Shown here one piece after another: positions 6,266 through 17,445 of a stretch of 64,000 bases of DNA (position 1 is the first letter of the stretch; the number at the start of each line of letters is the position of its first letter). Location of the stretch: NCBI GenBank assembly GCA_002691145.1, contig NZHE01000026.1:15678-79677 (forward strand). The letters are read 5' to 3'. The notes beneath the pieces are model-generated. The model did not search any database. It was given only the letters and a program-made list of their open reading frames with translations, and had not been told where the DNA came from. This DNA is from Rickettsiales bacterium. GTDB taxonomy: Bacteria > Pseudomonadota > Alphaproteobacteria > Methylaequorales > Methylaequoraceae. A program made the position numbers and the translations under genes.

Positions 6266-6482
6266 TTTAAAGTTTTCAATTATGAAGTTTCTTTTGCAAA
6301 GATCCTTTCACAAAATTTTAACATGATTTAATACTTAAAAGATAAGTTTATGAGCCAAAAATTTGTAAATACAACTTTTTAAAATAATAATACTAACTTC
6401 TAATTTCTAAGAAGACCATATTTTAGTTATTTGTATAAAAAAAATCTTAATTTTTAAAATATTTGAATATTAAATGAATAAA

Positions 6483-6534
6483 AATCTACTTTTAAAAACT
6501 GATTATTTAGAATGAAAAATTTTAAAAGTAGATT
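6483..6534. repeat. perfect 15-bp inverted repeat (AATCTACTTTTAAAA ... TTTTAAAAGTAGATT) with a 22-nt spacer, in the cobT / yqjG divergent intergenic region
   Basis: Direct reading of the sequence; the arms are exact reverse complements. Confidence 0.5.
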
Positions 6535-6697
6535 CTATTAGGCATTAACTTTAAGCAGTACAAGTATTAGTTTATCTTATTCTAAAAAATAATTAAATTA
6601 AAGCTACAATTTTTTTTGAAATTAAATATAATAAATTCATATATTTACGGATTTTTTCTTTTAATAAGCGTTAGTTAATAATTGATATAAAAAAATC

Positions 6698-7685: not shown

Positions 7686-7700
7686 TGTTATAATATAACA
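7686..7700. promoter_or_regulatory. Zur-box-like perfect palindrome TGTTATAATATAACA, 7 nt upstream of the 7708 start codon
   Basis: 7-1-7 perfect palindrome identical to the proteobacterial Zur consensus TGTTATAWTATAACA. Confidence 0.6.
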
Positions 7701-7707
7701 ATACATT

Positions 7708-8334
7708 ATGAATTATTTTAACACTAAAATTAATAGAAAAGTATTAGAATTTAAAAACGAAATTCAAAATTTAAAAATAATTGAAAGAGATATCCCACTT
7801 AATTCAGCAATATTTTTCGAAGAGTTATGTGAATCACTTCCTACAATTAAAGGTTTAGTAGATTACTCTAATGCGGAAAATAATATTCTTCAGCTTTTTG
7901 AAGATAAGGTAAGTATTAAAATTAAGAAAAATCCTTTCTTTAATCTATGGATTAAAGATATGAGTAAATTATGTCAGTTATTTTCTAAACTTTTAGAGGA
8001 AAATACAGTTTTTTTTTGCATTGGAACAAAAAGAGGTTGCAAGCGTTACCATGTAGACATGGTGCCATTCAGATTATTAGTAACTTATGCCGGACAAGGT
8101 ACTGAATTATTACCTAATCATGCAGCAGATCGTGAAGCATTTTTTAAGGGTAAATCTAATAAATTTATTGTTAAGGACAAATCAAAAATCAAACATATTA
8201 AAAATTGGGATATTGCTTTATTTCGGGGAGGAAAAAAAGGTATACTGCACAGAACCCCACATTCAGCATTAAAAAATAGAACATCAATTTTAATGAAAAT
8301 TGACTCCTCATCTTTTTTAGAGCAAATGATCTAG
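7708..8334 (+). CDS. conserved hypothetical protein (possibly DUF1826 family; tentative), predicted Zur-regulated
   Basis: 208-aa ORF with the conserved-looking block CKRYHVDMVPFRLLVTYAGQGTELLPNHAADREAFFKG; a Zur box overlaps its promoter. Confidence 0.45.
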   Translation: MNYFNTKINRKVLEFKNEIQNLKIIERDIPLNSAIFFEELCESLPTIKGLVDYSNAENNILQLFEDKVSIKIKKNPFFNLWIKDMSKLCQLFSKLLEENTVFFCIGTKRGCKRYHVDMVPFRLLVTYAGQGTELLPNHAADREAFFKGKSNKFIVKDKSKIKHIKNWDIALFRGGKKGILHRTPHSALKNRTSILMKIDSSSFLEQMI

Positions 8335-8629: not shown

Positions 8630-9013
8630 CTAAAAAAAAATATCATCAGCTAAAAAAGAAAAGAAAAATCCGACTAAGTAAATAACTGACGAAACAATAA
8701 TAATTTTCAAATTTATAATTTTTAGCCTGTTGCAGATCTTTGCTTGCTTAATATTAAATGGACAAGGTGCATTCTTAAATCGCCAAAATAAATAAATAGT
8801 AATTATTAATAAAAGTCCTGCTACAGCAAACACCTGAACTTTGTATTTAGATATAATAATCAACCATGGAAATATTGATATAAAACTTGCTAACACAGCA
8901 CCCATTCCAATAACAACAAGTAGGGATGGAATAGCACAACAAATTAAAGTACTAAAACTTGTGAATAAACTCAATACGGGTACAAGCATTTGTTTATATC
9001 TACTAATTCTCAC
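8630..9013 (-). CDS. MerT-like heavy-metal transport membrane protein
   Basis: 127 aa with 3 TM helices. Has the Cys-Cys pair in TM1 (TLICCAIPSLLVVIG) and a Cys-containing cytoplasmic loop (APCPFNIKQAKIC), matching MerT topology. Confidence 0.55.
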   Translation of the reverse strand: MRISRYKQMLVPVLSLFTSFSTLICCAIPSLLVVIGMGAVLASFISIFPWLIIISKYKVQVFAVAGLLLIITIYLFWRFKNAPCPFNIKQAKICNRLKIINLKIIIVSSVIYLVGFFFSFLADDIFF

Positions 9014-9323: not shown

Positions 9324-9968
9324 CTAAAATCTTTTAATAAAATTAAACAAAAAATCGTTGTGATAACTTAGTCCTATTTCAGCCAAATAATCACCTTTAA
9401 AGATTCTTAAGAAAGGTGTGAAAACTAAATTATCTGAAGAATTCGGCATATGATCAATCTGAAACATAAACCATGTATGAAGATCTCCATATTTACCAAT
9501 ATAAGGAGCTAGTCCGAATCGTAATTTTTGTTGATAAAATTTTTCTATCGATAAACTATTATTTATTCTATTTTCGTAACTCACAAAATAATTTCTATTT
9601 TCCCAATCAAATAAAAGTCCAGTAAAAAAACTTGGCAAGACTTTATTCTGAAAATGTTTATAATTACTTAGGGCCACACCAACTCCATTCCTAATATAAA
9701 AATTTGATTGTGATTTTGAAGTATTAATTCGATTAATCAGATAGTTAAATTGTGCACCATGAAATTGCCATTCTTTTTTTCTCCAATATTCTGCTCTATA
9801 GCCTAGAGAATATTTTACTGAAGGGCTCAAGTGAATGTGAACACTATTTTTGTTTACGTCATTCATCTGCATGATTGTCCAACCATTAGGATAAGAAATA
9901 GGTCTAGTTTTGACATCAGTTGTAAAAACTAAAAATAAAAAAGGTCCAAATATAAGATATTTAAACAT
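9324..9968 (-). CDS. secreted / putative outer-membrane protein (signal peptide, Tyr/aromatic-rich, beta-rich)
   Basis: 214 aa, N-terminal signal peptide, no internal TM helices; family not recognised. Confidence 0.3.
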   Translation of the reverse strand: MFKYLIFGPFLFLVFTTDVKTRPISYPNGWTIMQMNDVNKNSVHIHLSPSVKYSLGYRAEYWRKKEWQFHGAQFNYLINRINTSKSQSNFYIRNGVGVALSNYKHFQNKVLPSFFTGLLFDWENRNYFVSYENRINNSLSIEKFYQQKLRFGLAPYIGKYGDLHTWFMFQIDHMPNSSDNLVFTPFLRIFKGDYLAEIGLSYHNDFLFNFIKRF

Positions 9969-10028: not shown

Positions 10029-10376
10029 TTAGGAGGTATATTTAGGAGGTGGATCTTTTAGTTCACTTATTAATGAATAATGATTAGAAATTAAAAAAAT
10101 TTCGAACGAATTACCAAAATTAATCATTGATAATATATGATTTTTATGAGTTAAAACATTTTTCAAATAACATTGGCAATCCAAACATAACTTTATATTA
10201 CTTTTATCAACGTTATTATTTTGATTATGGCAAGATTTATCATGAACGGAGATTTCTTGAACCTGACTTTGATGTTCTATTTTTTCTAAACAAAAATCAT
10301 TAATATTACTAAATGTAGTAGAATGAATAAAACATACTACAGAAAACATAACTAGTAAAAATTTAGGATAATTCAT
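10029..10376 (-). CDS. small secreted Cys/His-rich protein (putative periplasmic metal-binding)
   Basis: 115 aa; signal peptide, then CLEKIEHQ...HDKSCHNQ...CLDCQCY...HKNH. Confidence 0.3.
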   Translation of the reverse strand: MNYPKFLLVMFSVVCFIHSTTFSNINDFCLEKIEHQSQVQEISVHDKSCHNQNNNVDKSNIKLCLDCQCYLKNVLTHKNHILSMINFGNSFEIFLISNHYSLISELKDPPPKYTS

Positions 10377-10491
10377 ACTTATATATTTAATTTAAAACAA
10401 ATATTTTTTCAAGCGTTAAAATTAATGGCTCTACCAAAATTTTAATACCTTAATTATTTCCAAAAAAAGAAAAGTGTTGTGTTGACAAAAC

Positions 10492-10539
10492 TATATTTGT
10501 TATATTATAACACTACTATATTTGTTATATTATAACACT
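10492..10539. promoter_or_regulatory. two tandem Zur-box-like perfect palindromes (TGTTATATTATAACA at ~10498-10512 and ~10523-10537) inside a 23-bp direct repeat, in the divergent promoter between the TonB receptor and the MerP/MerT-like operon
   Basis: tatatttgttatattataacact repeated twice with a 25-bp period. Each core is a 7-1-7 perfect palindrome matching TGTTATAWTATAACA. A TTGACA -35-like hexamer lies at ~10481. Confidence 0.65.
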
Positions 10540-10567
10540 TTAATCTTTCAAAAAAAGGTATATCATT

Positions 10568-12529
10568 TTGAAAAATTCATTAAAATTCTTGACGATAATA
10601 TTTTTTGTAAACCAGGCTAGCGCTGAAAATCTTGAAACTATTTTTTCTGCACCTGATTTATTCGTTACTTCAAAAATTAAACCTTCATCAAATTTTGACG
10701 GTGATCGTGGAAACATACTTTTTGAAAATGATCAGCTTGAAAAAAAAGGACAATACTCAATTGGAGGTATATTGAATGATTTACCTGGTTTATCCTCTAC
10801 AAGTTTAGGTAACGCTTCTAGACCATTGATTAGAGGTATGTCAAATTCAAGGGTAAGAATTCTTCAAAATAATAGTTCTCTAAGTGACGTTTCTGAGTTT
10901 GCAGCAGATCACATAGTGGGTTATGACCCACTTTTGATTGATAAGATAGAGATTATTAAAGGTCCTGCAACATTGCTATATGGAAATAATGCTTTCGCAG
11001 GTGTTGTAAATATTATTAATCCTTTAATTGCTGTTGATACACCGATTATCGATCAAAGTGTTCAGGCTAGTTTTGGTTACAGCACTTCCGGTGGTGAACT
11101 TAAGTCGGCTCTTAAGGGTACCAAATCAATTGATAATTATACAGTTAGGGGGATGGGAAGTTTTTTAAGTGCTAGTTCTTATAATTTAGCAAATACATCA
11201 GCCAATCAAGGCAATTCTGCGAAGTCAAATTTTACAGGTGGATTTGGATTTACTTACAATAATGGTGAAAATTTTTTCGGGATTGCTGCAGACAAATTGG
11301 AAGCTGAATATAGTTTGCCGGGAGGTGAAGGTGTGGAAAATAGAACTACAATTAATCCTACAAGAAATACTTTTAATTTCAAAGCCGGTATTGCTTTAGA
11401 TTCTAGTTTATTTGAAAAAGTAAACTTAGAAGGAACTGTTTCAGAATATAGTCATGCGGAAAGAGTTCTAGCTGATAAACATAACATAGAGTTTTTCAAT
11501 GACTCTTACGAAATTAAAACCTCACTAAATCATAAATCCTTATTTTCAAATAACCTTGAGGGATTAATAGGGTTTCATTATCAGAATCTCGATCAAGGAG
11601 CTAAAGGAGATGAGGAAGTTCATTTAACAAAAACAAAAACAAATAGTTTTGGTTTATTTGTTTTGGAAAAATTCAAATATAATACTATTGAAATAGATCT
11701 TGGTGGTCGTCTTGAATCTGTGAACCTTAAAAATTCAAGCAATGAAAAAGGTTTCTTTCCAGTATCCTTTTCATCCACGGCAAGAAAAGAATTTATAGAA
11801 AATAATACTTCATTTATTGGTTTTGATTTCACCCAAAGAGCACCAAATCCAGTTGAACTATTTGCTAATGGGGCACATCATGCTGTTGAAAATTTTGAGA
11901 ATGGTGAATCTACCCTAACAACTGAAAGTTCTTACAATTTTTCATTAGGTAATATTTACAAAAATGATTTAGACAAGTTACAAGTTGAAACATATTTAAA
12001 TTATATTGATAATTTTATAGCTGCGGATAGAGACGGTACAACTGTAGCAGTCGAGGGTGAAGATTTTAACAATGTTATTCATGAACAATATAATGCAATG
12101 TTTACAGGCCTTGAGGTTTCTGGTCGATATAATTTTGCAAGTATAAATGAATTTAACATTCTAACAAATTTTATGTTTGACTTCATTAAAGGATATAAAA
12201 CATCTACTGATAAAGCTATTACAAGAGTTCCTCAATCTAAAGTTAATGCCGGTTTGCAGCTATTAGGAGATAGTTTAGATTCAAACTTAACTTATAATCA
12301 TTATTTTAGTAAAGGATTTCTTGGACCTTTTCAAACGCGCACAGGTGGACATTCTAGACTTGATTTTGATGTTACAAAAGATTTTTCCTATTCCACAATC
12401 TCTGGACATTTAGTATTTTCAGCTTTGAATTTATTAGATGTAGTTGGAAGAAGTCATTTGGAATCAAAAAAAGACACTGTACAACTTCCTGGCAGACATT
12501 TTAATTTTTTGTTAAAGGTTTTTTATTAA
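10568..12529 (+). CDS. TonB-dependent outer-membrane receptor (predicted Zur-regulated)
   Basis: 653 aa; signal peptide, N-terminal plug region and long beta-barrel, C-terminal aromatic residue. Zur boxes lie immediately upstream. Confidence 0.85.
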   Translation: MKNSLKFLTIIFFVNQASAENLETIFSAPDLFVTSKIKPSSNFDGDRGNILFENDQLEKKGQYSIGGILNDLPGLSSTSLGNASRPLIRGMSNSRVRILQNNSSLSDVSEFAADHIVGYDPLLIDKIEIIKGPATLLYGNNAFAGVVNIINPLIAVDTPIIDQSVQASFGYSTSGGELKSALKGTKSIDNYTVRGMGSFLSASSYNLANTSANQGNSAKSNFTGGFGFTYNNGENFFGIAADKLEAEYSLPGGEGVENRTTINPTRNTFNFKAGIALDSSLFEKVNLEGTVSEYSHAERVLADKHNIEFFNDSYEIKTSLNHKSLFSNNLEGLIGFHYQNLDQGAKGDEEVHLTKTKTNSFGLFVLEKFKYNTIEIDLGGRLESVNLKNSSNEKGFFPVSFSSTARKEFIENNTSFIGFDFTQRAPNPVELFANGAHHAVENFENGESTLTTESSYNFSLGNIYKNDLDKLQVETYLNYIDNFIAADRDGTTVAVEGEDFNNVIHEQYNAMFTGLEVSGRYNFASINEFNILTNFMFDFIKGYKTSTDKAITRVPQSKVNAGLQLLGDSLDSNLTYNHYFSKGFLGPFQTRTGGHSRLDFDVTKDFSYSTISGHLVFSALNLLDVVGRSHLESKKDTVQLPGRHFNFLLKVFY

Positions 12530-12538
12530 TATAAAAAA

Positions 12539-12907
12539 ATGTTTAAGTATTACTCTTCTTATGTTCTATTTTATTTTACTTTAACACATTTTTTGTGTTG
12601 TGGTATTCCCATTCTTTTAGGCACAATGTCTGTGTTTACAAGTTTATTAATATTTGAATCATTAGTAGTAAATTTTGAGTTTTTGGAAGCATTTGATATT
12701 TATTTCTTTACTCTTACATCTCTTCTTTTTTTATTAATAATATGTTTTGAAGTTTATAAAAAAAAATTAAAGACAAAGGTTGAAATTGATAACAGTGATA
12801 TCCAGAAATTAAATTTAACTAGAAGAAAAGCTAGATTAAACATAATTGCATCTTCAATTATCTATGTATTCAATGCATCAATATTTTTTTCAGAAAGAAT
12901 GTTTTGA
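12539..12907 (+). CDS. hypothetical membrane protein, probably co-transcribed with the TonB-dependent receptor
   Basis: 122 aa with 3 hydrophobic helices, 9 nt downstream of the receptor gene. Confidence 0.3.
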   Translation: MFKYYSSYVLFYFTLTHFLCCGIPILLGTMSVFTSLLIFESLVVNFEFLEAFDIYFFTLTSLLFLLIICFEVYKKKLKTKVEIDNSDIQKLNLTRRKARLNIIASSIIYVFNASIFFSERMF

Positions 12908-15697: not shown

Positions 15698-16123
15698 TTA
15701 TAAACATTTTCTGCATATACCTGTAATCTCTATGCTCCAACTTTTTTGTTCAAACATATTTTCTTGTAGAGTTTTTTTGAATATAGATGGCAGTTTTCCA
15801 AAATGAGATTCGGTAACAGCACCACAATCATTGCATATCATGAATTGAGTTCCTTTATGAGGCTTGTCAGATTCGCATATTGTATACGCATTTAAACTCT
15901 CAATTTTATGAATAAAGTTAATACCTCTCCAAAAGTCAATTGCTCTATATACTGTTGGTGGTTTTGGATTCTTTACGAGTTTTGACAGTTCAGATAAGAT
16001 ATCATAAGCTTTAATGGGTCTTTTGCTTGAAGAAACAATCTTCAGCACATTCAACCGAGACTTAGTAACCCTATGCTTATTTTTAATACAAAAATCTAAA
16101 ACTTTTTTTTCGAAAGATTTCAT
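15698..16123 (-). CDS. zur: Fur-family transcriptional regulator, probable Zur
   Basis: 141 aa; winged-helix N-terminus and two CxxC pairs (CNDCG...CRKC). Located in a cluster with Zur boxes, a COG0523 gene and metal transporters. Confidence 0.65.
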   Translation of the reverse strand: MKSFEKKVLDFCIKNKHRVTKSRLNVLKIVSSSKRPIKAYDILSELSKLVKNPKPPTVYRAIDFWRGINFIHKIESLNAYTICESDKPHKGTQFMICNDCGAVTESHFGKLPSIFKKTLQENMFEQKSWSIEITGICRKCL

Positions 16124-16161
16124 GATCTTATTTTATTTATTTTACTGTATAAATCAATTTT

Positions 16162-17316: not shown

Positions 17317-17445
17317 AAAATAATAATATTTTCAAAAAATTCATTAAAAATATAATATAAAAGATGAATATATTATATTAATTACTTTATAAATATTAAA
17401 AATAACTACACGTATTTTTTTTATTTTAAATAAGCATCAAAATAT

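Follow-up and report, generated by a model that had tools for sequence, protein, structure and literature searches.

Why would a bacterium place two identical copies of one operator in front of a single receptor gene? The question is raised by a 64,000-nt stretch of DNA (the window) from a bacterium catalogued under Rickettsiales (GenBank assembly GCA_002691145.1, contig NZHE01000026.1, positions 15,678–79,677), in which two copies of the palindrome TGTTATATTATAACA stand in tandem between the gene of a TonB-dependent outer-membrane receptor and a divergently oriented operon of four genes. That this palindrome is an operator of the zinc uptake regulator Zur (a Zur box) is strongly supported on sequence grounds. 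It is probable that both copies are operators of zinc-loaded Zur, bound independently of one another: box 1 would be the ancestral site, lying over the −10 element of the receptor promoter, and box 2 an auxiliary site.

Read directly, positions 10480–10545 are gtgTTGACAaaACTATATTTGTTATATTATAACACT followed by ACTATATTTGTTATATTATAACACTttaatc, and Tandem Repeats Finder reports, in agreement with this reading, a 25-bp unit ACTATATTTGTTATATTATAACACT present in 2.0 copies with 100% matches (10490–10539). The two perfect tandem boxes described in an earlier note on this DNA are thus real. The note put the repeat at 23 bp and its period at 25 bp; the period stands, whereas identity in this strain fills all 25 bp, making the element a contiguous tandem duplication. 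Contrary to the note, the pair does not overlap the TTGACA hexamer, whose end is separated from box 1 by 10 nt. The genes on either side are as claimed, with the receptor starting at a TTG codon on the plus strand (10568) and the four-gene operon running from 10376 on the minus strand, and a Fur-family gene is found at the place given for it (15698–16123, minus strand). A search for the pattern TGTTATAWTATAACA gives three sites in the window and none in 100 dinucleotide-preserving shuffles; matches to the box with two or three mismatches are at chance level. Statements drawn from the window cover these 64 kb of the source genome. An Rfam scan of the whole window returned three tRNAs only; near the boxes it found neither a riboswitch nor any other known RNA.

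The box matches all 14 specified positions in the central 15 bp (TGTTATANTATAACA) of the Escherichia coli Zur-box consensus GAAATGTTATANTATAACATTTC, and the palindrome is close to the box of Neisseria meningitidis znuD (PMC2895646). All three window boxes (at 10498, 10523 and 7686) fit TGTTATANTATAACA at every specified position, and their outer flanks fit partly. The presumed binder, a regulator of 141 amino acids (aa), matches Pfam FUR at 4.7e-12; its best NCBIfam match is Zur (PRK11639, 4.5e-28, 98.1 bits), with Fur at 8e-9, and its closest solved structures are the Zur proteins of E. coli (4MTD, 2e-21) and Xanthomonas (7DH7, 5e-21), with PerR and Fur at ∼1e-4. Seven of the eight metal ligands of E. 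coli Zur align exactly (C103, C106, C143, C146, H77, C88 and E111) and H96 is off by one residue; the DNA-contact residues Tyr45 and Arg65 are conserved. The earlier identification of the palindromes as Zur boxes and of the Fur-family protein as Zur is borne out by the consensus match, by profile and structure matches in which Zur ranks best, and by the conservation of the box upstream of receptor orthologues.

This conservation was followed in receptor-protein scans of genome and metagenome collections, which recovered ∼80 orthologous loci (designated below by L numbers), all from marine uncultured Alphaproteobacteria with ∼29% G+C. The 75 upstream regions were grouped into 50 clusters, with receptor identity down to about 60%. 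In this comparison, of a kind proposed earlier, the box is kept ∼30–90 nt before the receptor start codon in 49 of the 50 clusters, the exception being L128. Box positions 2–7 and 9–15 are almost invariant across clusters and the flanks are near random, with a weak palindromic extension in the clade (AAr...yTT) that reads att...ct in this strain. In 24 of 48 clusters the first box is preceded by a perfect TTGACA at a distance of 7–10 nt; the distance is exactly 10 nt, that of the window, in 16 of these.

The box also accompanies other genes of the same group. It lies upstream of zur in L001, L002, L009 and L090, between divergent zur and receptor genes in L004, L096 and L104, and upstream of separately placed DUF1826 genes. 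Unlike several relatives, the window has no Zur box within three mismatches upstream of zur, and Zur autoregulation may have been lost in this strain. The zur gene is here 38 nt downstream of a photolyase-related gene (16124–16161; the region 17317–17445 was also noted).

Two boxes are present in a member of 14 of the 50 clusters, this species among them. The box-to-box spacings in the 14 clusters are 16, 16, 17, 21, 21, 22, 22, 23, 23, 23, 24, 24, 25 and 29 bp, and no helical phase is preferred, either across lineages or within the species (25, 26 and 27 bp). Some duplicates are recent and have similar spacers (L074, L082 and L115). In older ones (L002, L011, L085, L090, L104 and L110) the cores are identical at 13–14 of 15 positions and the spacers are at background identity; cores that are kept while spacers are randomised argue that both copies have been maintained in these lineages. 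The −35 hexamer TTGACA is never inside the duplicated unit, so the extra copy always falls between the promoter-proximal box and the ribosome-binding site. A single box is found in L073, which is the nearest of the other species that share this gene order (83% receptor identity), and in 11 of 11 contigs of a related species cluster. The highest copy number seen is that of L115, a Sargasso Sea contig (AACY023701607.1, positions 1–112) with three boxes in a 23-bp tandem array.

Within the species, promoter alleles were counted from assemblies, not reads, in 20 resolved contigs that are 97.8–99.6% identical to the window. Two boxes are present in 18 of them, in four different duplication registers. 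Allele A, the window type, repeats a 25-bp unit of ACTATATT, box and CT (7 contigs, plus 9 near-identical places); allele B a 25-bp unit of TATATT, box and CTTT (6 contigs); allele C a 26-bp unit of AAACTATATT, box and C (4 contigs); and allele D a 27-bp unit (1 contig). The remaining allele, S, has a single box (2 contigs). Starting from the single-box sequence, one exact tandem duplication, in a register of its own for each allele, yields alleles A, B and D without any further difference; allele C shows one substitution besides its duplication. In the adjacent 2662 nt, alleles D and S show 0 differences and allele B differs from D and S by 1; overall, the allele backgrounds differ by 0–5 substitutions in 2.66 kb. 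The alignments indicate that the box has been duplicated, or has collapsed and then been re-duplicated, at least four independent times in the species, faster than neighbouring point substitutions accumulate. Each of the four duplicated units holds the whole box and leaves out both the −35 hexamer and the ribosome-binding site.

Two further observations concern these alleles. The differences between the window and L072 (99.6% identical) at 10515–10516 were considered as point substitutions in the spacer, a reading that was discarded when each allele proved to be an exact duplication in another register. In another scaffold of the same species (L179, KOPF15-1_SAMEA7392480_METAG-scaffold_3389, ∼590–690), a run of N extends from within box 1 to within the receptor gene, the pattern that an assembly from mixed promoter alleles would be expected to leave.

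The geometry of the promoter is consistent with a role of box 1 in repression. A loose promoter scan of the intergenic region (10377–10567, both strands), which is only suggestive, places the −10 of every promoter-like combination inside a box. On the plus strand the combination is TTGACA-N18-TATAAC, with TATAAC at 10506–10511 within box 1. On the minus strand TTGAAA-N16-TATAAC extends over box 2 with 10 of 12 matches, and perfect extended −10 elements TGTTATAAT are found in both boxes; the TTGAAA element is inconsistently conserved in relatives. Since box 1 follows the conserved TTGACA by 10 nt and holds the candidate −10, bound Zur would block RNA polymerase.

In the proposed mechanism, zinc-loaded Zur from the gene at 15698–16123 would repress the receptor operon (10568–12907) through both boxes. 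Box 1 would be the ancestral operator, at which Zur keeps RNA polymerase off the promoter, as its position suggests. Box 2 would stem from the 25-bp tandem duplication, in which the box was copied and the −35 hexamer left single. Its predicted place is shortly past the start of the receptor transcript (about +5 to +20), and a second Zur dimer bound there could add occupancy or act as a roadblock. By analogy with Bacillus subtilis yciC and Streptomyces coelicolor znuA, the effect may be less leaky expression, or a receptor that switches on at lower zinc; the tight repression suggested in the earlier note is a prediction of this kind. The two sites probably bind Zur independently, without a fixed protein–protein contact, and the symmetrical arrangement in this strain could allow the divergent operon to be controlled alike.

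Several points weigh against this reading. Boxes were picked at ≤2 mismatches, so their apparent conservation, that of second boxes included, is inflated. Members of 36 of the 50 clusters have a single box only, or none (L128), and because most relatives and two strains of this species have one box, the second is not essential. A stricter promoter and terminator scan called nothing relevant in the intergenic region, and the −10 assignment (TATAAC with an 18-nt spacer) is imperfect. The regulator, at 98.1 bits, is below the NCBIfam Zur equivalog cut-off of 167 and by the PRK11639 model is to be described as a divergent Zur-like protein and no equivalog; the receptor, at 206 bits, is likewise below the ZnuD cut-off of 950. 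Lastly, each box also reads as an extended −10 (TGnTATAWT), so that duplication could add promoter activity instead of repression.

This last point leads to an improbable alternative, compatible with repression through both boxes, in which the duplication creates a second Zur-controlled promoter and raises receptor expression under zinc starvation. Each box does contain an extended −10 on both strands (plus, TGTTATATT; minus, TGTTATAAT). With the 25-bp period, the ATAACA that ends box 1 sits 10 nt before box 2, as TTGACA does before box 1, giving ATAACA-N18-TATAAC for box 2 with 9 of 12 matches. Zinc is scarce in the surface ocean, which makes stronger induction a plausible benefit. However, the spacings of 16–17 or 21–23 bp in other lineages cannot recreate this −35 geometry, and on the receptor strand A and T are equally frequent at the box centre (22 vs 23), so TATAAT at box positions 4–9 is not under directional selection. 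It is very unlikely that the palindrome belongs to another regulator (Fur, Mur or Irr) or is a mere AT-rich −10 element. The genome has 28% G+C, the box contains TATAAT-like hexamers, and another Fur paralogue could lie beyond the 64 kb covered; against this, the 14 matching positions are those of the Zur and not of the Fur consensus, shuffles of the same AT-rich window give 0 matches, core positions G2 and C14 are invariant though they lie outside any −10 hexamer, and the box is tied to zur, ZnuD-like and DUF1826 genes over dozens of lineages.

The model of the earlier note, in which contacting Zur dimers bind the two operators cooperatively and repress both the receptor and the divergent operon of Cys/His-rich, outer-membrane, HMA and membrane proteins, is rather unlikely. 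E. coli Zur does bind its operator cooperatively, through a dimer-of-dimers stabilised by an Asp49–Arg52 salt bridge (PMC6103462), but these residues are Ser44 and Ser47 here, and spacings of 16–29 bp across lineages and 25, 26 or 27 bp in the species, without helical phasing, do not support a fixed contact; the claim of cooperativity gains no support on either count. The case for dual control concerns this strain. The boxes lie between the divergent units, the operon is linked to the receptor cluster in many relatives, and the duplication leaves each direction a box on its −10 and adds another immediately downstream; shared control is plausible because all minus-strand promoter-like sites of the intergenic region have their −10 in a box. 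Other observations in relatives weigh against it. Apart from this species, 0 of 13 lineages with at least two boxes show the divergent operon upstream of the receptor, several contigs being too short to exclude it, and where the operon lies away from the receptor promoter (L009, L011, L078 and L094) no Zur box precedes it, the best site having at least four mismatches. Second boxes without the operon, and the operon without a box, imply that the second box is no general device for controlling two operons; the divergent genes may share the operators in this strain, which the comparative data do not require. There is, finally, the view that the locus is a neutral mutational hotspot, where the palindrome or its bound protein provokes duplications and collapses and the second copy has no selected role. 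Four registers and a single-copy allele on nearly identical backgrounds speak for it, as do a scaffold with an assembly gap exactly over the boxes and a second box that seems to be decaying in L117 relative to L114. It is nevertheless unlikely. The identical palindrome of the DUF1826 promoter is single in 7 of 7 contigs of the species (unchanged in six, with one substitution in L163), and this constancy, with the single box of all 11 sister-cluster contigs, argues against simple palindrome instability. Moreover, 90% of the species contigs have two boxes although tandem duplications easily collapse, older duplicates retain both cores between randomised spacers, and each of the four duplications takes in the entire box and stops short of both the −35 hexamer and the ribosome-binding site.

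Recurrent duplication in the clade and in the species thus points to selection for two operators, to an unusually high local duplication rate, or to both. It is possible, and suggested here with some hesitation, that operator number evolves rapidly under selection in a wild ocean population, a case of parallel cis-regulatory adaptation. The features of the locus are collected in Table 1.

Table 1. Regulatory elements and genes around the duplicated Zur box (positions in the window)
Feature	Position	Strand	Support or remark
TTGACA, −35-like hexamer of receptor promoter	10482–10487	+	Read directly; recurs in relatives
Tandem copy 1 (ACTATATT + box + CT)	10490–10514	.	Tandem Repeats Finder; exact duplication of single-box allele at offset 8
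Zur box 1, TGTTATATTATAACA	10498–10512	.	Pattern scan, shuffles, promoter scan; TTGACA-N10-box geometry as in single-box relatives
Tandem copy 2	10515–10539	.	Tandem Repeats Finder; comparison with single-box allele
Zur box 2, TGTTATATTATAACA, duplicated operator	10523–10537	.	Found in 18 of 20 contigs of the species
TTGAAA, weak −35-like hexamer, 8 nt from box 2	10546–10551	−	Weak candidate for the divergent operon
Third perfect Zur box, TGTTATAATATAACA	7686–7700	.	7 nt before DUF1826 start codon
zur, 141-aa Fur-family zinc uptake regulator, presumed box binder	15698–16123	−	Pfam FUR, NCBIfam and PDB matches
ZnuD-like TonB-dependent outer-membrane receptor, 653 aa, TTG start	10568–12529	+	Pfam Plug, NCBIfam, PDB
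122-aa membrane protein with CCGIP motif	12539–12907	+	9 nt downstream of receptor; follows receptor in almost all relatives
DUF1826 gene	7708–8334	+	Pfam DUF1826, 6.8e-25
115-aa Cys/His-rich protein, N-terminal hydrophobic segment, first gene of divergent operon	10029–10376	−	Counterparts at same position in relatives
214-aa protein ending in Phe	9324–9968	−	Conserved in relatives; no family in Pfam or NCBIfam
103-aa HMA domain protein, N-terminal hydrophobic segment	9003–9314	−	Pfam HMA, 4.4e-07; CxxC motif
127-aa membrane protein, invariant CC..P and C-P..C motifs	8630–9013	−	Earlier label ‘MerT-like’

The receptor has ZnuD as its best NCBIfam match (1.2e-60) and as its best relative in the PDB (4RDR, 8.5e-29), other receptors scoring 1.7e-7 or worse. 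It is called ZnuD-like here, and the Zur box suggests zinc as its substrate. The typical cluster in relatives runs from the box through the receptor and the 122-aa membrane protein to DUF1826, with zur and the four-gene operon (Cys/His-rich, 214-aa, HMA and 127-aa proteins) usually nearby. The 122-aa protein, for which Pfam and NCBIfam searches returned no family, is probably co-transcribed with the receptor; as it follows this putatively Zur-controlled gene in almost all relatives, it may serve as the partner of the receptor for zinc uptake at the inner membrane. It shares with the 127-aa protein a Cys-Cys-x-I-P motif in the first helix, with weak mutual similarity (E 0.001), and the homologues of both Cys-Cys (CC)-motif proteins are unannotated marine sequences only.

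Most relatives have DUF1826 in third place in the receptor operon, and in Francisella this family is under Zur control (PMC5786701). The gene has been relocated beyond the divergent operon in this species and in L073 (loci compared: L073, L078 and L116), with a perfect Zur box of its own, whose distance of 7 nt from the ATG leaves almost no leader. An inversion between this box and those at 10498 and 10523 was considered as the source of the relocation and rejected, since only a translocation accounts for the orientations of the genes. The 3′ part of DUF1826 (8271–8287) and the 5′ part of the Cys/His gene (10269–10285) form a perfect 17-nt inverted repeat; one arm is substituted at position 8272 in the 99.6%-identical strain L072, so the repeat is probably due to chance.

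In the divergent operon, the 115-aa Cys/His-rich protein gave no family match in Pfam and NCBIfam searches, and the 214-aa protein is possibly a small outer-membrane barrel. The earlier description of the last two genes as MerP-MerT-like gains support for the first of them, the HMA domain being confirmed with weak matches to CopZ and MerP (16.5 bits with the MerP model, against a cut-off of 92.55), and could not be confirmed for the second. The 127-aa protein has 247 homologues, all unannotated, with invariant C25, C26, P29, C84, P85 and C94; it has no Pfam or NCBIfam match even at E ≤ 10, its AlphaFold model is helical (predicted local distance difference test score 72.5) without a fold match in the PDB, and a membrane Cys-Cys motif is its sole resemblance to MerT. 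The operon stays linked to the receptor cluster in L009, L011, L078, L094 and L095. In L095 it lies behind the receptor operon in the same orientation, and in L011 it is preceded by a gene that resembles, by eye, a cation-diffusion facilitator.

Box-like sites occur beside the start of cobT in two relatives, as a pair 22 bp apart with one to two mismatches in L086 (313–349) and as a single site with one mismatch in L017 (2174–2188). No box lies upstream of cobT in the window (6266–6697), and the Rfam scan found no cobalamin riboswitch near the duplicated boxes despite the neighbouring cobT.

The analysis annotates a zinc-starvation regulon, comprising a ZnuD-like receptor, a small CC-motif membrane protein, DUF1826 and zur, in an abundant, uncultured and genome-streamlined lineage of marine alphaproteobacteria whose proteins are still labelled ‘hypothetical’. 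The natural allelic series, with one box or with two at 25, 26 or 27 bp, is suited to testing the effect of the second site on threshold and leakiness, and operator copy number could be related to zinc availability across ocean samples. If selection drives the duplications, copy number would be an evolvable dial for the zinc scarcity needed before the receptor is exposed, and parallel cis-regulatory adaptation would be directly visible in metagenomes.

The element belongs to the proteobacterial class of Zur boxes, and both two-box promoters and strain variation in box number have been described before; recurrent, independent and exact duplication of an operator within one natural population was not found described in the literature considered. 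The divergent znuA/znuCB promoter of E. coli has the same 7-1-7 palindrome core (TGTTATANTATAACA), likewise between divergent genes and overlapping promoter elements, and the recognition stretch PPTVYRA of E. coli Zur is also present in the regulator here. In E. coli, however, one box takes up two dimers joined by Asp49–Arg52, whereas here there are two separate boxes and a Ser/Ser pair; the outer flanks GAAA/TTTC of E. coli are partly kept, as AAr...yTT in the clade and att...ct in this strain. N. meningitidis znuD resembles the present locus in that a Zur box precedes the gene of a ZnuD-type TonB-dependent receptor, ZnuD being the closest solved relative, but one box was identified there (PMC2895646) and two are present here, and Neisseria ZnuD has 748 residues compared with 653.

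Among promoters with two Zur boxes, those of B. subtilis yciC and S. coelicolor znuA are thought to be bound independently, giving more stringent repression (PMC6103462). Their boxes overlap the −35 and −10 elements, whereas those described here are predicted to lie over the −10 and the start region; the present boxes are also, unlike those of yciC and znuA, exact tandem copies whose number varies between strains. Independent binding of Zur to two boxes has been shown for the 5′ untranslated region of Pseudomonas aeruginosa czcR (PMC9827704), and box number differs between strains in the bmtA promoters of marine Synechococcus (PMC9337993). At czcR and bmtA, Zur activates, or has been proposed to activate, genes for export or storage, whereas the gene behind the duplicated boxes here encodes an uptake receptor, for which repression is expected.

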